DNA of 64,000 nt, from the NCBI GenBank assembly GCA_031256715.1, contig JAIRQA010000040.1, positions 16,736 to 80,735 on the forward strand, written 5' to 3'. Below, piece after piece: positions 23,265 to 57,205 of this stretch (the stretch's first letter is position 1; each line of letters opens with the position of its first letter). This DNA is from Coriobacteriales bacterium. GTDB lineage: Bacteria; Actinomycetota; Coriobacteriia; Coriobacteriales; UBA8131. Below the pieces are notes generated by a model. It did no database searches. It was not told the DNA's origin and was given only the letters and a program-made list of their open reading frames with translations. Both the position numbers and the translations under genes were made by a program.

Positions 23265-23488
23265 GCCGCTTATCTGCGCACTTCAGTTCACTGGAATGTT
23301 GCGCCCACTTGGGTTCGATCCCAGGGACATGCGATAACAAAAGACCTCCTGTCATGGAAGTTCAGATCATTGCGATGTGGTGGTTGGGAACGGCTACAAG
23401 AAGAGGCTTCGTAAATAGGCTACCCATAGAAGATATAATTCGCACGCTTTTTTATTACAAATGCAGTTTGAAAGGACTCAATTTAGCA

Positions 23489-24402
23489 TGAGCAGAGTTT
23501 TCTACAACAGATTAGTGGAAGGTCAGACCGTCTCTGCTATCATCCATAATGGCAGTTACTTTTTTCAGCACATGGCAGTCTACGAGGATGGCTCCGTTAG
23601 TTGTTGGAAGCGAGTAGGGCTAGACGAGCTTCCTGAGCAGCTAAACAAAGGATGGCTTGTGACAGAAGTGCCCACTGGCGAAAATCTTAATGTTCACGGA
23701 TTAGGAGATTTTAAAATCATTGCGGCTGAATGGATGCATACACCGGAAAGTTATGTCGCGCATATTTGCGACTGCGTAAAGCAGATGAACCCAGACATGG
23801 AGGGCTTGTACAAAGAAACACGTCCGCAAAGTCAGCGCTGGGAAAAAAACCGCGTAAGTTGGAGCGCATCGCCTACTCCCTATAAGATTGCCGAAAGCTT
23901 TGGATACGACATCAGCAAAGGGGAATCAACAAGTCTTTTTTATAGATGTGGAGAAAAACTGCGGTTAACGCAGCTCACTGCATTTCCAGATAAGACAATC
24001 GCCATTGACTCACTTCCCGGGCAATGGTTTTCTCTACATGAAATTTATAAGATGTTTGAAACAGGTGAGCTAACGAGCAGCTTTGAAGGAAAGGGCAATA
24101 TCTTGTTAGGCGAACTTGGCGCAATAACGGCTGTGCGCGAGTGTGGAACATCAAACGATGACAAGCTTATGGAAATCGTAGATTTGCTTGCAAAGACCAG
24201 TGACGAGCCTACATCACATGATCGCTGTAAAAATGCATACTATGAATACTTAAGATGGCCAACTGAGGAATGCCGTAAGCGGTTACAAGCAGCATATGAG
24301 GCAGTTCCGGAGCACGAGCGAAGATATCTAGGCGACATGGACAGCAAGGATTGGGACTACAGAAGAATCATTTATCACCCAGAAAATAAACGGGAAGTAT
24401 GA
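23489..24402 (+). CDS. hypothetical protein (about 304 aa)
   Basis: Long ORF with ordinary composition; ATG 23489 or 23461. No family recognised. Confidence 0.5.
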
Positions 24403-24730: not shown

Positions 24731-24997
24731 ATGAGCACAGTAACAGTTCGTATGGATGCAGACATGAAGCGAGAAGCAGAGAGGATTGTTGGCAGCTTTG
24801 GCATCAATTTGCCTACGGCATTACGCATGTTTACAGCAGAAATCGTGCGCACAAAGTCTGTTCCAGTAAAGCTAGAGCGCGAGACTTCCTCCTATTTTGG
24901 ACTTACCGGAGAGGCATACCATGAGTTTTTGTTAGATGCGAAGAGAAGAATCGACGCCGGAGAACGAGGCACCGTGCATGAATTGATAGAGGTGTGA
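24731..24997 (+). CDS. RelB/DinJ-family type II antitoxin
   Basis: MSTVTVRMDADMKREAERIVGSFGINLPTALRMFTAEIV... is a ribbon-helix-helix DinJ-like N-terminus. Its stop lies 1 nt before the toxin ATG. Confidence 0.8.
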   Translation: MSTVTVRMDADMKREAERIVGSFGINLPTALRMFTAEIVRTKSVPVKLERETSSYFGLTGEAYHEFLLDAKRRIDAGERGTVHELIEV

Positions 24998-24998
24998 A

Positions 24999-25256
24999 AT
25001 GCCAATTACCTTTGACAATCCCGCATGGGTACAATACACCGAATGGCAAGAGCTTGACAAGAAAACCCTTAGGAAAATCAATAAGCTCCTGAAGTCTATA
25101 CAGCGCGATGGCATTAATACGATTGGAAAAGTCGAGCGTCTTAAAGGTGACCTCTCTGGATTTTATTCTGCTAGGATTGACGAAAAGAACCGTCTGGTCT
25201 TCTATGTTGTTGGTGATGATATCGTCATCGTTTCTTGCTCGGGGCATTACGAATAA
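24999..25256 (+). CDS. yoeB: YoeB/Txe-family type II toxin (mRNA interferase)
   Basis: 85 aa; W..Y..WQE.DKK....IN.L...I.R......GK.E.LK..LSGF.S.RI...+RLVY......I.I..C..HY pattern as in E. coli YoeB. Confidence 0.85.
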   Translation: MPITFDNPAWVQYTEWQELDKKTLRKINKLLKSIQRDGINTIGKVERLKGDLSGFYSARIDEKNRLVFYVVGDDIVIVSCSGHYE

Positions 25257-26095: not shown

Positions 26096-26935
26096 GTGTT
26101 CATATCAGCTGAGGGTAACAGACCCGGAAGGTTAGACCCTGATTGGAAAGAGATTGATAAAGCAATAGAGGCGCGTGCCAAAATAGTTGTAGACAACGAA
26201 GCTAATAGAAATCGGAGTTACAATTTAGGCGAGCGGCAGGTTCGCGAATATCTTTCTGATAACGGCTACTATGTCGAAGAAGAAAATGATAAGTATGCTG
26301 TGTATGTTCGCTACAGCCATGAAACACCTAACACGGCTACTTCTAAGGCTCCAGAAGTGACCGCACCAAGAATTGGTGAGCAGGCAAAGAGTGTTTATGA
26401 TAGTGCCGTAAAATATGACAAACTCGTTACTCCAATGCTTAAAGATATGCAGGAAAGAGGCGTTGAGCTTATTGGCTTGGAGTATAGGATAAAAGGCCTA
26501 GATAGGCTGGTTGAGAAGCTCCAGCAAGACAAGGATAGCCCAATCAAAGATGCACTTAGATATACATATATGCTTAATGAAGATGGATTCGGTGAACACG
26601 TGGCTGCAATTATTACCAAATTACAAGATAGCGGGCTTGAGTGTGTTAGAATCAGAAACACATTTAATGACGTAAAGAACTATCGTGGCGTTAACACACT
26701 CTTCAAGTTAGAAGACGGTTTCATTTTTGAACTTCAATTCCACACACAAGCTAGCTTTGATGCAAAGCAAAAGGCTCATGAACTTTACGAAGAATTGCGA
26801 GTAAGCAATGACGCAAACAAGATAAGGAAACTAGGCGATCAGATGGGCGAAATTTTTGCATCTATACCAATGCCTGAATATGTAGACTTGATTATAAGTT
26901 ATGACAATTTATATGCTGATGAGAATAAGGAGTAG
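26096..26935 (+). CDS. RelA/SpoT-like nucleotide pyrophosphokinase-domain protein (toxSAS-like). The frame is open upstream to 25874 but without ATG/GTG/TTG.
   Basis: YRIKGLDRLVEKL, IKDALRYTYM, NYRGVNTLF and FELQFHT line up with the small-alarmone-synthetase motifs RVKS..S..EK, D..G.R, GY.S.H and EIQIRT. The upstream in-frame segment ADIATKFIGRGSKYSSTEAYRKAFGELANSGVYTEDDIVFISAEGNRPGR looks like a separate N-terminal module. Confidence 0.6.
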   Translation: MFISAEGNRPGRLDPDWKEIDKAIEARAKIVVDNEANRNRSYNLGERQVREYLSDNGYYVEEENDKYAVYVRYSHETPNTATSKAPEVTAPRIGEQAKSVYDSAVKYDKLVTPMLKDMQERGVELIGLEYRIKGLDRLVEKLQQDKDSPIKDALRYTYMLNEDGFGEHVAAIITKLQDSGLECVRIRNTFNDVKNYRGVNTLFKLEDGFIFELQFHTQASFDAKQKAHELYEELRVSNDANKIRKLGDQMGEIFASIPMPEYVDLIISYDNLYADENKE

Positions 26936-26937
26936 CC

Positions 26938-27180
26938 ATGAAATATTATGTGCGCAAAAATGCTAGAAAGTTCAATGGGATACCAATCAGTATTGTAGTT
27001 AAGGCTGTAGGATACCGTAAGTTCCCAGCAAGAGCGTGGATATTAGAATCCAGAGATTTTACATCTGATATCCCACCATATGATGATGTATGGTACGATC
27101 TTGTTGAGGTCAGCGAAGAAGAGGCCCTTCGTATCGCAAAAAATACAGACGAATATAGAGCATATACAGAGGGATTATAG
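26938..27180 (+). CDS. small protein (80 aa), candidate cognate antitoxin or immunity partner of the RelA/SpoT-like gene
   Basis: ATG 2 nt after the upstream stop (tight coupling). No family recognised. Confidence 0.45.
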   Translation: MKYYVRKNARKFNGIPISIVVKAVGYRKFPARAWILESRDFTSDIPPYDDVWYDLVEVSEEEALRIAKNTDEYRAYTEGL

Positions 27181-27182
27181 CA

Positions 27183-28337
27183 ATGGTTAGAGCAGATACA
27201 TCAAGAACCCCCGATACCTCTGGTAGCGATGCTGCCAGAGCTGCTGAAGCGGCAGCTGCTAGTGCTGCTGCTAGTAGTGCCACCCAAGCAGCTCCACAGC
27301 CAAAATTTAGAATCGAGACTCCCGAAGAAAAAGCAGCAAGTTTTGCAGCAGCTAAGGAAAAAGCTGCTAAAGAACGAGCAAGAAAAGAAGCTGAAAAGGC
27401 AAGAAAAGAAGCAGAAAAAGAAAAGGCTACTCCAAAGCGTCCAGATTCTATAGGTGAAAAACAGTCTCAGATTAGCCCCTTTGACATCATGAGGCAAATG
27501 GGCTATGACCCATACGCACACCTTACAAGAAACCAACCCACCTTCACAAGATACAGCGAGAACCCGCAAATTCGCTCAATGCTTGAACCTGAGCAAACAC
27601 CTTCCACTGAAGCAAACGCTAACGAGGTTACCCAAGAAGCACCTAAGCAAAAGCCAGCAACAAGACCCAGCGATGTCATGTATCGCAGTGACACAAGGCG
27701 AGCAGGCACGCCTAATAATGCTGATGTACACAGTGGAAACTATAACCAAGCAGATGATTTTCTTTCTAATAAGATAGAAACACCAGAAGTATCTGTAATG
27801 AAACTTGATAAGGCTCGTGCTTTAATAGACAAAGATAAGCCAGATGGTTTATACGATCTTATTGCTCTTGAAACTATAAACTTCGCTACTGGCTATCAGG
27901 TTACACCTGATCTTACCTTTGACAATCCTACTTATAGGTGGAGCGATGAGGAATACGCATGTTGTGTCAATATATTTAGAGACCTTGGAGATGGAATAGC
28001 TTATGCAGGCAAGTTTGCTGGTGAGCCTGAAATTAGCCTACTTGTAGAAGATAGGGCGCTTGCTATAGAACTTGGAAGAAAATACAATCAACAGTCTGTG
28101 CTAGACTGGGCTACATTAAATGAAGGGATGACAAATACAGAAAACTACATTAAGGTTTGCGAAACGCTTGGAGCTGAAGAAGGCGAAAAAATCCTTGCAA
28201 CATTTACAGAAAATGATATACATGATTTAATTACATATCTAATTGGAGATAACAGACCTACTTTAATTAAGGCAGCAGTTTGCAATGGAATAAGAGAAGA
28301 TGTAGAAAAGGCTAGAAACCGCCATGGCCAACATTAA
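27183..28337 (+). CDS. hypothetical protein with an A/K/E-rich N-terminal half and a globular C-terminal domain (phage or conjugative polyvalent-protein-like)
   Basis: 384-aa ORF whose ATG lies 2 nt after the previous stop. Domain not identified. Confidence 0.5.
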   Translation: MVRADTSRTPDTSGSDAARAAEAAAASAAASSATQAAPQPKFRIETPEEKAASFAAAKEKAAKERARKEAEKARKEAEKEKATPKRPDSIGEKQSQISPFDIMRQMGYDPYAHLTRNQPTFTRYSENPQIRSMLEPEQTPSTEANANEVTQEAPKQKPATRPSDVMYRSDTRRAGTPNNADVHSGNYNQADDFLSNKIETPEVSVMKLDKARALIDKDKPDGLYDLIALETINFATGYQVTPDLTFDNPTYRWSDEEYACCVNIFRDLGDGIAYAGKFAGEPEISLLVEDRALAIELGRKYNQQSVLDWATLNEGMTNTENYIKVCETLGAEEGEKILATFTENDIHDLITYLIGDNRPTLIKAAVCNGIREDVEKARNRHGQH

Positions 28338-28363
28338 CCCGCTATCCAAAGAGGAACAAAACA

Positions 28364-28435
28364 ATGGTTAAAGCAGAAACATCAAGAACCACCGAAGGCG
28401 ACAGTCGTGATGTGTTCTTGCGGCGCTCTGAATGA
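28364..28435 (+). pseudogene. 12-codon remnant of a paralog of the 27183 gene, cut off by the left repeat of the AbiE cassette
   Basis: ATGGTTAAAGCAGAAACATCAAGAACC (MVKAETSRT) versus ATGGTTAGAGCAGATACATCAAGAACC (MVRADTSRT) at 27183, with a similar RBS context. Homology ends where the repeat begins at 28398. Confidence 0.6.
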
Positions 28436-28543
28436 TTTTGCGGGCGGACACACGGGCGAACGCAGTTCGCCCCTACGAAGTGCGGTTTCGGCAACCCGAC
28501 TTGCAAAACACGGGCGAACGCAGTTCGCCCCTACGAAGTGCGC
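28398..28543 (+). repeat. left copy of the roughly 150-bp direct repeat bracketing the AbiE module (contains two GGGCGAAC-N4-GTTCGCCC hairpins)
   Basis: GCGACAGTCGTGATGTGTTCTTG...GCTCTGAATGATTTT...CACGGGCGAACGCAGTTCGCCCCTACGAAGTGCG, with the hairpin module repeated once. Confidence 0.85.
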
Positions 28544-28673
28544 TTGTCCTGTCTGGCGGACAAGAAGGCTTGAACATCTGGCAGACAGCATTTCCTTGTG
28601 CAACATGCACTAGTGCTACTGCTAGGCGCTTAGACAGTTGCGCTTATGATTTGCAATGGTAAAAAAATAGCTC

Positions 28674-28702
28674 TTGACTTTATTGTTCGTATAAATTAAG
28701 AT
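28674..28702 (+). promoter_or_regulatory. promoter of the abiE operon (TTGACT-17 nt-TAAGAT) overlapped by an inverted repeat
   Basis: TTGACT 28674-28679 and TAAGAT 28697-28702. TTCGTATAAAT...ATTTACGAA is an imperfect palindrome across the -10, consistent with AbiEi autoregulation. Confidence 0.5.
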
Positions 28703-28723
28703 ATTTACGAACGAAAAGGACAA

Positions 28724-29332
28724 ATGGTGAATGTTGTGGAAACTAAAGATAAGATTGCTGACATCCTAAAAGCGAATAATGGAATCCTCAAAGCGTCTGA
28801 CGCAAGACTTGCCGGCATCTACAACAAAGAATTGCAAAGGATGACAGAGGCGGGCTTACTTGAGCGTATCAGTCGTGGGCTGTATATCTCTGCGTCAAAC
28901 ATACCAGACGATTATCTTTTGGCGCAGTATAAATGTGGCAAAGGCGTTTTTTCTCATGAAACGGCATTGTATTTCCACGGTCTATCTGACCGGACGCCGT
29001 TGGTGCTGATGATGACAATTCCAAGCGGATATAACACAAGGCTCTTAAAAGACAAAATCTCATATCGCTTCTTTTACTGTAAGTCTGATGTCTACTCACT
29101 TGGAATCACAACGCTGCTCTCGCCGCACGGAAATGCTTTGCGAGTTTATGATAGAGAGCGAACGTTGTGCGACTGCATCAAGAGGAAAGACAGCTTGGAT
29201 TCGGACTTGGTGCTTACGGCGGTCAAGCAGTATATGAGCGAGAGCGGGGCTGACCTCGCAAAGTTGCTCTCATGTGCAGAAATGCTAAAAATCCGTGACA
29301 CTTTAAGGCAATATATGGAGGTACTTGTTTGA
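28724..29332 (+). CDS. abiEi: type IV toxin-antitoxin AbiEi-family antitoxin (wHTH)
   Basis: N-terminal ...GILKASDARLAGIYNKELQRMTEAGLLERISRGLY wHTH, about 200 aa, overlapping the downstream NTase gene by 4 nt. Confidence 0.8.
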   Translation: MVNVVETKDKIADILKANNGILKASDARLAGIYNKELQRMTEAGLLERISRGLYISASNIPDDYLLAQYKCGKGVFSHETALYFHGLSDRTPLVLMMTIPSGYNTRLLKDKISYRFFYCKSDVYSLGITTLLSPHGNALRVYDRERTLCDCIKRKDSLDSDLVLTAVKQYMSESGADLAKLLSCAEMLKIRDTLRQYMEVLV

Positions 29333-30180
29333 TGGAGAATAATAAATTCCCAATAGATAATCCGCGTAGGCTCAAAGACTGGGTAAACAATATGGCAAAG
29401 AAAAATAATCTTGTTGCCAACACCGTTTTGCAAAACTACATGATGGAACGATTCTTGGAGCGCGTGTCAGTCTCGAAGTATCGCGACAATTTCATCCTGA
29501 AAGGTGGGTTTCTCATCGCTGCGATGGTGGGAATTGATATGCGAAGCACAATGGATATGGACACAACCATTAAAGGCATTCTAGTCAGCCAAAGCGAAAT
29601 TGAGAAAATCGTTTCGGAAATATTGGCTGCACCGATAAATGATAATGTGACGTTCGAGATTAAGTCTATCAAGCCGATACATGAGGCGGGCGGCTACGAG
29701 GACTTCAGGCTTGGCATAGTTGCTACGTTCTTTGCCATGCGCGTTGATTTGAAGTTAGACATCACCACCGGGGATATTGTCATTCCAAGGGAGGTGGACT
29801 ACTCTTTCAAGCTGATGTTCGAGGACAGGAGTATTCAGGTTAAGGCATACAACATTAATACGATACTTGCCGAGAAAATTGAATCTATACTTGCCCGAAA
29901 CGTTGCAAATACAAGAGCAAGGGATTACTATGACGTATATATTCTGCTGACTACCAGAAGAGGAGAGATTGACAGATGCGAATTGCTTAATGCCATCACC
30001 CTTAAAGCGGTAGAGCGTGGCACTCTCATCTATATTAAGCAGCATGTGAAATATCTGTCGGACATCAGGGAGAGTCGCGACCTACTCGCGTTGTGGAATG
30101 CTTATAGAGATAAGTATCCATACGCAGAAGGCATCGAGTTTTCGTCCATTGTAGATTCTTTGGTACGGCTATTTGAATGA
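29329..30180 (+). CDS. abiEii: AbiEii/AbiGii-family nucleotidyltransferase toxin
   Basis: FLERVSVSKYRDNFILKGGF...MRSTMDMD motif pattern of DUF1814/AbiEii NTases. ATGA overlap with abiEi. Confidence 0.8.
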   Translation: MMENNKFPIDNPRRLKDWVNNMAKKNNLVANTVLQNYMMERFLERVSVSKYRDNFILKGGFLIAAMVGIDMRSTMDMDTTIKGILVSQSEIEKIVSEILAAPINDNVTFEIKSIKPIHEAGGYEDFRLGIVATFFAMRVDLKLDITTGDIVIPREVDYSFKLMFEDRSIQVKAYNINTILAEKIESILARNVANTRARDYYDVYILLTTRRGEIDRCELLNAITLKAVERGTLIYIKQHVKYLSDIRESRDLLALWNAYRDKYPYAEGIEFSSIVDSLVRLFE

Positions 30181-30353
30181 GAATTTCTTCTTGATAAAGC
30201 GGCGCATGATTATTTTTCGAGAGCAATAACAAAGCAATTTGATGTTCAGAATGAGTGAAGTGAATTTGATGATAGAGAAAATGGAACCCAGCTGAAAGGT
30301 TGAGCGCCGAAGAATATATGCGTCGAATTAAATTGTTTAAGCAACTCCCAAAA

Positions 30354-30503
30354 GCGACAGACGTGATGTGTTCTTGTAGTGCTCTGAATGATTTTAGGGG
30401 CGAAAACACGGGCGAACACAGTTCGCCCCTACGAAGTGCGACTTGGTCAATCAGGCGAGCGAGCACACGGGCGAACGAAGGCGCGCCCCTACAAGCATGG
30501 CGC
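30354..30503 (+). repeat. right copy of the roughly 150-bp direct repeat bracketing the AbiE module
   Basis: GCGACAGACGTGATGTGTTCTTG...GCTCTGAATGATTTT...CACGGGCGAACACAGTTCGCCCCTACGAAGTGCG... aligns colinearly with 28398-28543 (roughly four-fifths identical by eye). Confidence 0.85.
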
Positions 30504-30571
30504 TCATCGTAGCTCGTCTTCGTTCTTCTCAACAAATCTTAATTCTTAACCCTTGTGGTACCATTAGCATT

Positions 30572-31342
30572 ATGGCTATTTCTAAACAAAAAGAGAACAC
30601 GCTAAAAGCAGTTAAGCGATTGGGAGAAGGAACCCAGTCGCGAGCTGGCCTTGGCGTTGACATCATAGAGATTGAGCGCATGGAGCAAATTCTTGTGCGT
30701 ACGCCTCGTTTTATGCAGCGCGTTTTTAGCGAGGGCGAGCGTAAATATGCTATGGCAAAAGCCCGTCCGGCGATTCATTTCGCGCTTTTCTTTGCAGCAA
30801 AAGAGGCCGTTTTAAAGGCTTTGGGCACAGGCTTTACCGGCATGGCGTTTACCGATGTAGAGGTAACTCACGACAGGCACGGACGTCCAGAGCCTATATT
30901 GCACGGAAACGCCGCAAAAGTTGCTAGCGAGCAAGGCGTTGTAGAGGTAGAGCTTTCGCTTTCTTACACGCATCAGGTGGGCGTGGCTTCGGCGGTTGCT
31001 ATAAAAAGCGAGGATCGTCCGCGCAAAGACGAGCGCAAAGACCCTATGGAGGAGCTTCAGCAGCAATTTAAGGAAATGCGCTCGATGTTAGACAACATGG
31101 ACGAACGCATTCGGGAACTCAGCGAGGGCTCAGAGACTGCTGTTGCCGAGGTTGAGGCAGAAGACGAAGAAGAGGGCGAATCTGATGTTGAGGATGACGC
31201 GAGTGCTGCTAGCGAAGACGAAACCGCTGCTGAAACTACGTTTAATGTTGAGAAGAAAACCGATGCCGAAGCTGCTAGCGATGCAAATGGGACAACCGAA
31301 ACACACAGCGGCGCATCCCTAAGCGAACAAACATTGTCATAG
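30572..31342 (+). CDS. acpS: holo-[acyl-carrier-protein] synthase with an acidic C-terminal tail
   Basis: GLGVDIIEIERM..., FAAKEAVLKALG and LSLSYTHQVGVASAVA. Start at ATG 30572; the track ORF from 30443 reads through the repeat. E/D-rich tail from about 31010. Confidence 0.88.
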   Translation: MAISKQKENTLKAVKRLGEGTQSRAGLGVDIIEIERMEQILVRTPRFMQRVFSEGERKYAMAKARPAIHFALFFAAKEAVLKALGTGFTGMAFTDVEVTHDRHGRPEPILHGNAAKVASEQGVVEVELSLSYTHQVGVASAVAIKSEDRPRKDERKDPMEELQQQFKEMRSMLDNMDERIRELSEGSETAVAEVEAEDEEEGESDVEDDASAASEDETAAETTFNVEKKTDAEAASDANGTTETHSGASLSEQTLS

Positions 31343-31478
31343 CTAGGTGTCGTGCTATTATGCTAGCATATTCACACAGCTTAGTAACCTCTGATAGCCT
31401 GTTAACCTCACTAGCCTTGTTAGCTTCGCCAGCCGCGCAAAACTTGTCTTGCGAACAAAGCGAACAGCAGGAGGCGAC

Positions 31479-32576
31479 ATGAGTCGTCTCATGGATCAAA
31501 ACGTTGCGCAAAATTCGTGCCCTGAACAAAGCGACCAGCGCATATCGTTGCCGGCAATTCCTGAAGACGCAAATAAGTATTCGCGAGGCAGCCTATTGAT
31601 CTTAGCAGGTTCTAGCAGTTTTCCTGGAGCTGCTGTGCTTTGCGCGCTGGCGGCGGCCCGCACAGGTGCTGGTTATGTAACATTAGCCGTGCCTGAGCCA
31701 GCGGCAACATCTGCAAGGGCGCATCTACTTTCTATACCAGTTGTTGCTGCGCCAGCAACAAGCGAAGGAGCATTTGCTGCAAATGCGCTTTTGAGTATTA
31801 TAAAGGGGCGGCAACACATAGACGCAATTGTTTGTGGGCCAGGCATCATGGTTAGCCCTGAAACAATTGCCTTTGTGCAAGAAGTCATGCAGTTTGCAGC
31901 CAAACATGACATCCCATTGCTTTTAGATGCCGATGCACTTAATGCTTTAGCGCTTTACTTAGGGGGAGGTGCGGCAAATCAAGAATCTACTAACACACCC
32001 ATAAAACATAAAGCAACTAACGTGCATGCAAATCAAGAATCTTCCAGCGTAACAAAACAAGTAACAACACAAGTAACAACACAAGTAACAAAACAAGTAA
32101 CAGCACAAGCAGCTAAACAAGCAAAACATGCAGCAACACAAGCGGCTCCCTTAGAACAACAAAAACAGCTACCAACATTTACTGAGCACAAACTGACACT
32201 TACTCCGCATGGTGGTGAGCTCGCAAGGTTACTGTGTGCCACACAGTTACAGGATGCTAGCATGCTAGCACAGTTGTTACGTGCGATTGTTGTTGCCAAA
32301 GGACCTGCCACAGTTATAACCGATGGCAAGAAAACCATAGAGTCGGCAATAGGCACTGCGGCATTGGCTAAGGCGGGTACCGGCGATGTTTTAGCCGGAA
32401 TCATTGGCTCTTTGCTTGCTCAGGGCATGAGACCATTTGAGGCTGCCTTAGCTGGCGTTAAGATACATAGCAAAGCAGGTTGTCTTGCAGAACAAAATTT
32501 TGGTATACGCTCGGTAATGGCAGAAGATGTAATAGCAGCGATTTCCGATGTCTTGCGCACCCTGCCCATTATCTAA
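31479..32576 (+). CDS. nnrD: ADP-dependent NAD(P)H-hydrate dehydratase with a roughly 75-aa Q/T/K-rich insertion
   Basis: KYSRGSLLILAGS, LDADAL, LTPHGGE and KAGTGDVLAG motifs. AGGAGG RBS before ATG 31479. Insert (VTKQVTTQVTTQ...) at about 31960-32185. Confidence 0.85.
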   Translation: MSRLMDQNVAQNSCPEQSDQRISLPAIPEDANKYSRGSLLILAGSSSFPGAAVLCALAAARTGAGYVTLAVPEPAATSARAHLLSIPVVAAPATSEGAFAANALLSIIKGRQHIDAIVCGPGIMVSPETIAFVQEVMQFAAKHDIPLLLDADALNALALYLGGGAANQESTNTPIKHKATNVHANQESSSVTKQVTTQVTTQVTKQVTAQAAKQAKHAATQAAPLEQQKQLPTFTEHKLTLTPHGGELARLLCATQLQDASMLAQLLRAIVVAKGPATVITDGKKTIESAIGTAALAKAGTGDVLAGIIGSLLAQGMRPFEAALAGVKIHSKAGCLAEQNFGIRSVMAEDVIAAISDVLRTLPII

Positions 32577-32730
32577 CACTGTCTTACCTGTTGTCTTGCG
32601 CACATGACGATGACTTTTACGGCAACAATTACATCGTATTATCTAACAACTGCCTTGCCTGTTGCCTTGCGCCTTAAACCCACAATGCAACAAATGTCTT
32701 GCTTCATACGCCCCGAACCTCACTCAAGCA

Positions 32731-32905
32731 ATCCAACAACGGCCACTTCACACGACCCGAACCTCAGTAAATCTATCCAACAACGGCCACCTTAGAAACT
32801 CCGCGCTTCTAGATCGCTACCCAACAACGGCCACCTTAGAAACTCCGCGCCTCTAGCTCGCTATCCAACAACGGCCACTTCATAAATTCTTCATCTCTAG
32901 CCCGC
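32731..32905. repeat. about 44-bp tandem repeat x4 downstream of nnrD
   Basis: ATCCAACAACGGCCAC recurs at 32731, 32774, 32819 and 32863, with conserved TTAGAAACTCCGCGC..CTAG between copies. Confidence 0.85.
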
Positions 32906-33075
32906 ATTTTACAAACTGCAATAATCTTTATTAAAAATTCTTTAAAACGACACACAATCTACATGTTCTCGTATGCAATCACTTGTGCTTTTTGCTAACA
33001 TAGCGGTGTTGGTTTTCCGTAATGTATGCTTGTAGGAGGGCACACAAAGTCTTTTGGAAAGGGGTTGCATTAATT

Positions 33076-34185
33076 ATGAAAATTGCAACAACAGTGAACG
33101 AAAACAGTAGTGTAAGACAAGGCGCACGAGCAAGCGTGCGGCGTTGGCGCCAAAGACTAGGCATTGCCATGGTGGCTTTGCTTGCCGCTTTGGTAACAGT
33201 GACGCCAGTGCTTGCGTATGCGGCGCAAAGCAACAGTGTCATCGACCAAAGCGTTGCAACGCGTGTTGCGCTAGACGAGGTTGTCGCTAACAAGGTAGAC
33301 GGTGTATATTCACAGATTCAGAATGGACTCTCTGATTACGCTGGCAAGTTGGTAACCGATCTTATTGGAAACAGGGATTCTATAAAGTCTGCGCTAAAGC
33401 CCATATTGTCTGACGCGATAAAGGCAGAGTTAGACAAGGCAAACATCTCTGATCCTAAGGTGGACGAACTAATAGAAAAGTCTGTAGACAAAATCATCGA
33501 CAATAAATATGTAGATATGATCCTAGACCACGAGTTCACACAGGCCGTCATTGCTCGTACCTGCCGCTATGCAACTGCAGATATTATCGCGCAACTTAAC
33601 ATTAGCGCCGATAGAGACACCATTGTTGCCAATGCTTCTGACCATATCTGGAACGCAAGCCTGAAGTCTGTTGGCACGGCATCTACAAAAGTAAAAAGCG
33701 ATTTGCCGGTAATAACCGCGGCTGGAGTTGTCACAAATACATCGTATTACAACTTCTCGGTTGTATCTTGGAATACATTGTTTGGCATTAAGACAACAGC
33801 CAAAGAGATTAATGTAAGCGGTTGGAACTCCTCAAACATTAACACGTATATTACCGCTACAGTTGGTTTAAACGCTGCCGGCAAATACAACGAATACAAA
33901 ACAAAGCTCAGCAATATGGACTACAAGACCATCATCTTAGAAGCAGCTAAACGCGCAATTTATGACGAGGTTGTCTTCAGACTTGAAACACTTTATCAGA
34001 ACGTGAAGACTTGCGTTGTAACAAACGTGCAGGAAGAGCTGGCAGAACTTGGCATTAATGTTGCCCTTAACCCCACTGACAGCTTAGAAAAGCTTGCAAA
34101 AGACATTAAAGCAGCAGTAGAGGCAAAGGCAATACAGGATACGCACACTGCCTTAGATAGCTTGTGGCAGTACCTGCTTTCCTAA
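33076..34185 (+). CDS. hypothetical secreted protein
   Basis: ATG 33076. Basic N-region followed by GIAMVALLAALVTVTPVLAYA-AQ, a signal peptide. No family recognised. Confidence 0.55.
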   Translation: MKIATTVNENSSVRQGARASVRRWRQRLGIAMVALLAALVTVTPVLAYAAQSNSVIDQSVATRVALDEVVANKVDGVYSQIQNGLSDYAGKLVTDLIGNRDSIKSALKPILSDAIKAELDKANISDPKVDELIEKSVDKIIDNKYVDMILDHEFTQAVIARTCRYATADIIAQLNISADRDTIVANASDHIWNASLKSVGTASTKVKSDLPVITAAGVVTNTSYYNFSVVSWNTLFGIKTTAKEINVSGWNSSNINTYITATVGLNAAGKYNEYKTKLSNMDYKTIILEAAKRAIYDEVVFRLETLYQNVKTCVVTNVQEELAELGINVALNPTDSLEKLAKDIKAAVEAKAIQDTHTALDSLWQYLLS

Positions 34186-56154: not shown

Positions 56155-56181
56155 CTTGTAGGGGCGAACTCTGTTCGCCCG
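56155..56181 (-). repeat. solo copy (inverted orientation) of the GGGCGAAC...GTTCGCCC-CTAC hairpin module
   Basis: CTTGTAGGGGCGAACTCTGTTCGCCCG is the reverse complement of the module found in the AbiE-flanking repeats. Confidence 0.75.
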
Positions 56182-57038
56182 CTAACGCCAACAGCTGTAC
56201 TCATATAAATATGATTGAGGGAGAACAATTGACATCAGGTAATACTCGCTATAACGTCTTTGATCCATCACCTGTACTACACACTATAAATAATGATGAC
56301 AGCGAAAGAAGGGGTGAAGAAAGACGCATGATGATGATATCAAACAATTAACAGACAAGTACGAAATGATATATAAAGAGATGGACGAGCAAAGAAAGAA
56401 TCCTGGAAAATGGCAAATACTATTCATCAATACGCTTGGCAAAAATGAGGCACTTATCACAACCGACGGAAGAGCGTTAATTCCCGAAATGCTTGGGCCT
56501 TAAGATGACCTTGTAGTTGCAACGACTGTATTCGCTAGCGTGGGCAACGACAGTAACAAATACTGAGCGCCAAACCGCATCATCCGCGTCAACCACGTCA
56601 AACCGAGTCGTTGCTCGTCGATGGTTTGACATAATTGTGAATGATAATTTATGACGAAAAGAAAACCGAGAGAGCGACGGAAAGGCAGCCCTTAAGGCAA
56701 AACTGTATACATGGGCAAGGGCTCTGACCAAAACGTATAGCTTACTGAAATCGCCAGCAACTAAAAAGGCTACTTAAAAGCAAATAAGATTATAACGATT
56801 TAAAACGGCAAATTAACGCATGAAAGATGAGGTATACGCTCATGCCACACAAATACCATTTCACAAATACGAACTTCACGCAGGCAAGCTACGTAAACGC
56901 AGTTATCGAGGTGCTTCGTGAGGCGTTTGGCTGCGGTTATGCCTTAGGGCCTGATGTAGAGAGCAATTATTCCAAGTCGCTTTATATAGATGAGCTTTTA
57001 CCCCGCCTCATGTCCGCCGAAATGTCTGTTGCCGATGT

Positions 57039-57205
57039 AAACGGGACGCTGTGGACAGCGTCCCCTACGATGGGAATGCAAGCAGAATTCGGGCTGATCC
57101 AAACGGGACGCTGTGGACAGCGTCCCCTACGAGGGGAATGCAAGGAGAAAATAATTTGGGGATTATGCAAATTGACGTAGGGGACGCTGTCCACAGCGTC
57201 CCGCC
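57039..57205. repeat. three copies of a 22-bp palindromic hairpin (GGGACGCTGTGGACAGCGTCCC) with a CCCCTACG flank: two direct, one inverted
   Basis: Copies at 57043-57064, 57105-57126 and 57180-57202. The first two carry AAAC...CTACGA(T/G)GGGAATGCAAG flanks. Confidence 0.85.

Follow-up and report, generated by a model that had tools for sequence, protein, structure and literature searches.

An AbiE operon lies between direct repeats built of GTAG-type REP elements in a Coriobacteriales genome

In the genome of an uncultured Coriobacteriales bacterium (assembly GCA_031256715.1, contig JAIRQA010000040.1), an abiEi/abiEii toxin–antitoxin operon lies between two direct repeats of about 150 bp that carry hairpins. 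Are these repeats the ends of a mobile defence cassette, as an initial annotation of this DNA had proposed, or do they belong to something more ordinary? We analysed a stretch of 64,000 nucleotides of the contig (positions 16,736 to 80,735; hereafter the window, in whose own coordinates all positions are given), to which the copy numbers reported below for the source genome refer. The two repeats are copies of one local cluster of repetitive extragenic palindromic (REP) elements, in which a head of about 55 nt precedes two GTAG-tagged REPs arranged head to tail about 58 nt apart. The REPs are members of a widespread class that is also represented elsewhere in this chromosome, and a dedicated mobile cassette is probably not what the unit represents. 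We consider it likely that duplication of this local REP cluster, or its use as a substrate of recombination, took place around an AbiE module acquired horizontally. The features discussed are collected in Table 1.

The repeats are colinear and flank the operon, as had been noticed before: a MAFFT alignment pairs 28396-28545 with 30352-30503, and a repeat finder returned 28387-28494 and 30343-30450 as a direct repeat with 84% identity over 108 nt. Over the whole unit 122 of 154 positions are identical (79%), with an uneven distribution: 45/54 (83%) in the head, whose sequence includes GTGATGTGTTCTTGNNGNGCTCTGAATGATTTT, 34/35 (97%) in the first hairpin with its tail GAAGTGCG, 12/24 (50%) in the spacer between the hairpins and 31/41 (76%) in the second hairpin with its tail. 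Beyond 28545 and 30503 the left–right identity falls to 29%, near the level of unrelated sequences. Since the spacer is barely conserved, the robust homology comes down to about 90 nt, namely the head and the first hairpin, plus a second hairpin at a matching distance of 58/59 nt. The hairpin modules start at 28450, 28508, 30406 and 30465. The hairpin pattern has four matches in the window against 0.00 expected (100 shuffles), and the head pattern has two, also against 0.00 expected (shuffled controls). The layout first described, with a head and two hairpin modules per unit, is present, but the stem of the fourth hairpin (30466-30492) is broken and its GAAGTGCG tail is missing, this copy being degenerate, and the loop given as four nucleotides is in fact a 3-nt loop (GCA or ACA). 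Folding of the whole unit (z-scores of -0.9 to -2.5) recovered the two hairpins and nothing else that is convincing. A search of 28200-30700 against Rfam assigned no family, its single microRNA match (E 0.22) being a chance one.

REP elements have been defined by a tetranucleotide, either GTAG or GTGG, placed 0-2 nt 5′ of a hairpin whose basal stem of 7-20 nt is fully paired and whose loop has 2-5 nt (PMC6006769). Read on the minus strand, the module of our repeats is GTAG-GGGCGAAC-NNN-GTTCGCCC, that is, the tag, an 8-bp perfect GC-rich stem and a 3-nt loop (on the plus strand, the tail CCCCTAC follows the stem). The GTAG is 0 nt from the stem at 28476, 28534 and 30432 on the minus strand and at 56158 on the plus strand, and the 8-bp stem GGGCGAAC/GTTCGCCC with its 3-nt loop is found in four copies: the solitary one at 56158 and the three flanking hairpins other than the degenerate fourth. 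The copies are extragenic, lying between called genes; a 23-codon open reading frame (ORF) to the left of the operon, described below, enters the head, not the hairpin. Tag position, stem and loop all agree with this definition, and the hairpins flanking abiE are thus classical, generic GTAG-type REP elements.

The right head contains, just 5′ of the first hairpin, a vestigial inverted half-REP, TAGGGGCGAA (30395-30404), which is able to pair with 30422-31 as an alternative stem, and a more decayed GCGGGCGGA stands at the equivalent position of the left unit. These remnants preceding the first hairpin suggest that an ancestral unit contained an inverted REP doublet.

A second type of REP is also present in the window. 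It reads GTAGGGGACGCTGT-CC-ACAGCGTCCC with a 10-bp stem and forms a separate cluster, in which the head-to-tail period is 62 nt, near the 58-59-nt period of the abiE-flanking units; this second cluster overlaps the 3′ end of an unannotated ORF (56827-57180). The window thus holds five copies of the first type and three of the second, at four sites. These properties are shared with the GTAG-tagged REPs and the arrays resembling bacterial interspersed mosaic elements (BIMEs) that have been described previously (Di Nocera et al., 2013, PMC3733652; Nunvar et al., 2010, PMC2817692): the GTAG adjoins a short GC-rich perfect palindrome, the elements are extragenic and occur as singletons, inverted doublets or head-to-tail dimers, clusters are reiterated together with flanking DNA, and Y1 genes resembling those of REP-associated tyrosine transposases (RAYTs) are associated, here in other genomes. 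Several points differ. The host is a member of the Coriobacteriales, while most relatives of the core sequence are in gut Clostridia, and the text of the 2013 survey (PMC3733652) mentions neither ‘Firmicutes’ nor ‘Clostridi’ nor ‘Actinobacteria’. The density is low here, at about eight hairpins in 64 kb, and the REP of related genomes sits in frame within a RAYT-like gene and does not flank it. In addition, an identical 24-nt core that spans phyla and phage contigs is unusual. REP families are usually limited to one species or genus. The abiE-flanking repeats, being GTAG-type REP clusters, belong to a known kind; the lineage that carries them is poorly sampled.

The head and the REP core behave very differently when other sequences are searched. 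No further copy of the head was found in the window (with up to three mismatches), and none was detected among 170 fetched loci, in IMG/VR or in the JGI metagenomes. At about 55 nt, the head is thus lineage-specific and found nowhere else searched. On the other hand, a scan of species-representative genomes found the 24-nt core CGGGCGAACNNNGTTCGCCCCTAC without mismatch at no fewer than 118 loci of other genomes (L001-L118), and it is also exact in 40 IMG/VR viral contigs (L131-L170). The genome loci listed are mostly from Oscillospirales and other Clostridia, further hosts being Coriobacteriaceae, Erysipelotrichales, a few Proteobacteria (of the Beta-, Epsilon- and Deltaproteobacteria), Rhodothermales and Zixibacteria metagenome-assembled genomes (MAGs); errors in MAG binning could explain some of the outliers. 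Across 170 occurrences only the 24-nt core is conserved and the flanks vary; inverted doublets are common and head-to-tail arrays are present (with a 65-nt period in L102). The sequence GTTCGCCCCTACGAAGTGCG, considered as a species-specific REP tail, was set aside: its match is a REP doublet on one unrelated metagenome contig.

Some REP copies of other genomes adjoin RAYT-like Y1 transposase genes or even sit inside them. Indeed, RAYT/IS200-like ORFs containing the CGGGCGAACNNNGTTCGCCCCTAC-type REP were found at five of the 118 listed loci, namely L007, L098, L099 (106-366), L116 (4294-4764) and L118; they show the motifs YFxTxCT...PNHxH... and a weak Pfam Y1_Tnp match. The REP hairpin is in frame within these coding sequences, twice in most of them: near the N-terminus, where GTAGGGGCGAAC... 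is translated as VGANCVRP, and just past the HUH motif, where CGGGCGAAC...CCCCTAC gives GRTQFAPT or GRPQVAPT. In canonical RAYT genes, the REPs flank the gene and do not interrupt it. A conserved non-coding element (GATGTTCTTAGCGGAGAAATCAC ..., with a terminator hairpin at its end) was observed at L001 (~1700-1900), L066, L077, L098 (minus strand, ~1200), L017, L044 and L101; most copies contain an inserted REP doublet, which is absent in L098, and L017 has two copies 247 nt apart. An Rfam search with the L001-type loci returned no match. This element was also considered as a possible copy of the head, but a comparison of 130 loci gave only a loose resemblance, and the element is unrelated.

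If the repeats were part of an AbiE cassette, then they would be expected to accompany the operon elsewhere. The closest AbiEii proteins of other genomes are 74-85% identical, and the nearest AbiE modules have 70-86% nucleotide identity, with homology covering only ~28674-30180 (blastn against four fetched contexts). None of the repeat is shared, and the proposal that it belongs to the cassette finds no support here. The conserved block includes the promoter/operator, as seen in the alignment with the relatives L120, L123 and L124; this region has a promoter-like site at 28674-28702 and 23-nt inverted arms (28674-28696 and 28701-28723). Outside these boundaries, 28546-28673 has no similarity to any fetched locus and 30181-30351 has none of 40 nt or more. 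Plasmid and phage databases gave only short matches internal to AbiEii, and no second copy of the segment. As for the representative P0001 of the cluster of 282-aa proteins, this is the AbiEii of the window itself.

The contexts of the relatives are diverse: a short contig that bears a DDE transposase gene, contigs that bear tyrosine-recombinase genes, an integrase/Mob element and a Coriobacteriia defence island. Because these relatives occur in unrelated mobile or defence contexts, AbiE appears as a self-contained, horizontally moving module. The island (L124 7559-10849, from the Coriobacteriia MAG WRHU01000002.1) contains two different abiEi/abiEii pairs, separated by a gap of about 0.5 kb in which a single small ORF lies, beside DUF8370/8371 genes and a type III CRISPR-Cas system, and no REP hairpins. 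The genes of our operon are ordinary for an AbiE type IV toxin–antitoxin system. They form a two-gene operon with overlapping stop and start (the abiEii ATG overlaps the abiEi stop in TGATG, 29330-29334), encoding an AbiEi_4 winged helix–turn–helix antitoxin and an AbiEii (DUF1814) nucleotidyltransferase, and the promoter has the inverted repeat expected for negative autoregulation. Judged from these sequence features, abiEi/abiEii is a horizontally acquired, self-regulated toxin–antitoxin/abortive-infection operon, and the sole distinctive point is its REP-cluster context.

To the left of the operon lies gene A, followed by a fragment (A′) that repeats its ribosome-binding site and first codons. 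The claim that the start of a truncated paralog ends where the left repeat begins is borne out, with 36 of 43 nt identical between 28353-28395 and 27172-27214 (blastn: 34 nt, 91%, E 9e-9). The ATG at 28364 opens the 23-codon ORF mentioned above (MVKAETSRTTEGDSRDVFLRRSE, 28364-28435), which enters the head and stops at 28433-28435. It had further been proposed that AbiE landed in this paralog or replaced it. The 43-nt 5′ fragment does abut the left repeat, but no 3′ remnant is detectable, and the REP unit could equally have truncated or replaced the paralog. A candidate remnant from the middle or 3′ part of the gene was tried and rejected: the top tblastn match of gene A in 28338-30700 lies at 30285-30347 (NPAERLSAEEYMRRIKLFKQL, residues 248-268) with an E value of 0.097, and a profile of 113 domain homologues pointed to this site too, yet equally good scores came from 49 of 300 shuffles and from 12 of 21 control chunks of the window. 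The A′ fragment shows that this spot had undergone duplication and deletion before. As for gene A itself, it has no full-length homologue, its only match among 5.8 billion proteins being to itself; its residues ~215-315 form a domain that is also present at the C-termini of phage portal and minor-capsid (minor-capsid-2) proteins (113 remote hits; Pfam on P0245 and P0246).

Table 1. Positions in the window of the repeats, the operon and the neighbouring features
Feature	Position	Strand	Remarks
tRNA-Gly(CCC)	22306-22380		
Gene A, 384 aa	27183-28337	+	ORF list
A′ fragment: duplicated ribosome-binding site and first 10-11 codons of gene A	28353-28395	+	36/43 nt versus 27172-27214
Left REP unit	28396-28545	+	Head 28396-28449, hairpin 1, spacer, hairpin 2
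Left REP hairpin 1	28451-28476		Stem 28454-61 / 28465-72, tag CTAC 28473-76
Left REP hairpin 2	28509-28534		
Unique 128-nt segment	28546-28673	+	Between left unit and abiE promoter; small inverted repeat 28543-28588
abiE promoter/operator	28674-28723	+	-35 TTGACT; GTTCGTA...TACGAAC inverted repeat across -10; ribosome-binding site AAGGA
abiEi, 202 aa, antitoxin/transcriptional regulator	28724-29332	+	Pfam AbiEi_4 (PF13338) E 1e-8; PADLOC E 4e-67, full length
abiEii, 282 aa, nucleotidyltransferase toxin	29332-30180	+	Pfam AbiEii (PF08843) E 1e-34; PADLOC E 3.5e-92, full length
Unique 171-nt segment, non-coding	30181-30351	+	Between abiEii and right unit
Right REP unit	30352-30503	+	Head 30352-30405, hairpin 1, spacer, degenerate hairpin 2
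Right REP hairpin 1	30407-30432		
Right REP hairpin 2, degenerate	30466-30492		Stem broken, without GAAGTGCG tail
acpS, holo-ACP synthase with acidic tail	30572-31342	+	First core gene right of repeat; Pfam ACPS on homologues
Solitary fifth copy of the same REP hairpin	56158-56183	- (GTAG reads on + strand)	Intergenic; same 24-nt core
Second REP type, GTAGGGGACGCTGT-CC-ACAGCGTCCC, 10-bp stem	57043-57202	.	Three-copy cluster: two head-to-tail, one inverted

We then considered whether anything at the locus could mobilize the segment. The absence of a recombinase, noted from the start, is upheld: Pfam searches with nearly all ORFs of at least 100 aa in the window detected no recombinase, integrase, transposase, RAYT or Y1 domain. 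Ends of a miniature inverted-repeat transposable element or of a transposon are absent as well, the best local alignments between 28536-28725 and 30179-30360 scoring 15-16 when shuffled sequences score 16.7 on average and 26 at most. What stands of the initial reading is therefore a mobile defence module between hairpin-bearing direct repeats beside a truncated gene copy. Its interpretation as a new system of cassettes, or as a mobile unit so far unrecognised, is not supported, given generic REP hairpins, a head seen nowhere else in the searches, AbiE relatives devoid of the repeat and an insert that lacks terminal repeats, inverted or direct.

Comparable layouts exist around genes of other kinds. 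REP-bearing direct repeats of 70-350 nt, 2-5 kb apart, surround ordinary genes at L005, L018, L028, L051, L060, L080 and L102. In the phage contig L144 (1340-2270; the same in L153, L159 and L170), a head of about 50 nt and a REP array stand on each side of a small scaffold-like gene; in the arrays, REPs of several sequence types follow each other head to tail with a period of about 60 nt, a layout like that of the abiE locus. In our window, the two copies of the composite unit occupy adjacent intergenic spaces, and with about 55 such spaces the probability of chance adjacency is only about 4%; the two copies are thus linked by a local event and not by independent insertion.

How might such a local event have proceeded? 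By one route, the REP unit upstream of acpS would have been reiterated locally with its flanking DNA, which is the usual mode of growth of REP clusters, and the AbiE DNA would then have been inserted between the copies. By another, a single homologous crossover of incoming circular DNA carrying a related unit would have left direct repeats on both sides. Either way, the AbiE module would end up between the two copies together with 128 nt and 171 nt of flanking DNA; this order of events is what we infer from the present arrangement. As in REP-mediated rearrangement, a segment that was rearranged or acquired is bordered here by short dispersed palindromes. REPs in general serve as join points of duplications and as insertion hot spots. 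As regards their present role, the hairpins have no U-tract on the coding strand, and a terminator-like geometry is found on the opposite strand only, which makes transcript 3′-end protection or insulation, and service as a recombination substrate, the more likely functions: they are probably stabilisers of transcript 3′ ends or insulators between transcription units, as well as recombination-prone DNA.

Three points weigh against this explanation. The only two copies of the unit in the 64 kb are adjacent and flank the only obviously mobile module; unit and AbiE are therefore not associated at random, which would fit a cassette-type history equally well. The uneven divergence between the copies (head 83%, first hairpin 97%, spacer 50%) is not predicted by simple duplication, and gene conversion or selection acting on the head and the first hairpin is needed to account for it. 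Finally, the copy number of the head is that of the 64-kb window alone.

Among the other explanations, the one closest to the initial proposal is a double-crossover cassette exchange, in which the REP units would serve as portable homology arms and AbiE would be one of several alternative cargos. The direct repeats of ~150 bp around a clearly horizontally mobile defence module, and the adjacency of the units, unlikely by chance, speak for it, as does the presence of the REP core on phage contigs and in many genomes, by which incoming DNA can share short homology. Yet only the head is of a length and specificity that could direct homologous recombination, and it is in no other sequence searched, the AbiE relatives are without repeats, and arms that are 79-84% identical with REP cores of 24 nt are poor substrates for homologous recombination; moreover, there is no known alternative cargo or empty site, and we regard such an exchange as unlikely. 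A Campbell-type integration seems to us slightly less probable again. Here a circle made of 28546-30351 and one unit would have undergone one crossover with the resident unit upstream of acpS, the present direct repeats would be the hybrid products, and the reverse crossover would excise the circle and restore a single unit. The topology fits exactly, with an insert between direct repeats and no transposon ends, and the unique segments of 128 nt and 171 nt could be donor DNA, but the donor must have carried the lineage-specific head, which among the sequences searched is found at this locus only, and a divergence of 16-21% between the copies implies an old event or very dissimilar partners.

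The orientation of the hairpins raises a different possibility, namely that a RAYT or another Y1 transposase of the IS200/IS605 type, acting in trans, used same-strand REP hairpins as left and right ends for a non-autonomous, single-strand transposition. All four flanking hairpins do have the same orientation, like the ends of IS200/IS605 elements, RAYT-like genes with exactly this REP exist in other genomes, and RAYTs are described as binding and cleaving REP DNA (PMC4690160). However, the window has no Y1 transposase gene (ORFs of at least 100 aa scanned), the colinear homology takes in the 55-nt head upstream of the hairpin, which hairpin-defined ends do not require, the collections searched contain neither an empty site nor another copy of the segment, and the AbiE relatives are not REP-flanked, all of which makes this scenario very improbable. 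An integron-like cassette, in which the 150-bp unit would be an attC-type site for a distant integrase, is largely refuted and keeps hardly any probability. The resemblance lies in a structured repeat that flanks a small accessory toxin–antitoxin module with its own promoter and no internal recombinase; toxin–antitoxin cassettes of chromosomal integrons are likewise flanked by structured repeats and carry their own promoter. But neither IntI nor any other integrase gene is encoded in the window (scanned ORFs), there is a single cassette and no array, folding gives two short independent hairpins where one long imperfect palindrome would be expected, and no attC core sites are present, the arm GTTCGCC not fitting the core GTTRRRY (attC cores being RYYYAAC...GTTRRRY). 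The duplication or recombinational use of a local REP cluster thus remains the explanation that we favour.

To the right of the repeats, the nearest AcpS orthologues are 73% identical and carry Coriobacteriales names. In one of the contigs that encode them (L129) glmS is directly upstream of acpS, and another (L128) begins at acpS. The sole identical contig, L127, matches the window over 29802-33675 with the same arrangement, and look-ups of the exact proteins (gene A, AbiEi, AbiEii and the 279-aa neighbour of gene A) returned no record. An identical contig of 3.9 kb is present in SRR14710896. Further downstream, the NAD(P)H-hydrate dehydratase gene contains a 12-nt repeat (GTAACAACACAA, 32037-32120) that encodes a TQVT-type repeat, and four to five tandem 44-nt units lie just downstream of this gene (32702-32905).

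The stretch from tRNA-Gly to acpS is rich in toxin–antitoxin genes and looks like accessory DNA: its GC content is 0.40-0.45, compared with 0.45-0.50 over most of the remaining window. Downstream of the tRNA are a DUF7638/DUF7639 protein (23461-24402) and a RelB/YoeB pair (24731-25256). The 279-aa protein (26096-26935) is similar to the C-terminal domain found in XopAD/skwp effectors and in phage head-morphogenesis proteins; with the intervening 80-aa ORF and gene A (26096-28337) it could constitute a module of the toxin/effector–immunity type. An island delimited by att repeats at tRNA-Gly was also considered and discarded, since neither a second copy of the tRNA 3′ end nor an integrase was found.

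If the flanking repeats are only a duplicated REP cluster, then the AbiE locus is an ordinary accessory defence operon in recombination-prone intergenic DNA, and the lesson for annotation is that hairpin repeats around a defence module do not alone indicate a cassette system. A bolder proposal, to which we give little credence, is that units of this class, a head followed by a REP array, mark exchangeable gene or operon modules in gut Firmicutes, Coriobacteriia and phages, the AbiE segment being one of them; such modules may move via RAYT-like Y1 transposases that carry the same REP in their coding sequence, or by REP-guided recombination. Were REP arrays truly to delimit exchangeable modules, this would mean a recombinase-free or RAYT-driven shuffling of defence genes in gut anaerobes and their phages. 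The identity of a 24-nt REP core across phyla and phages, and a REP lying in frame inside RAYT-like genes, are of interest in themselves.

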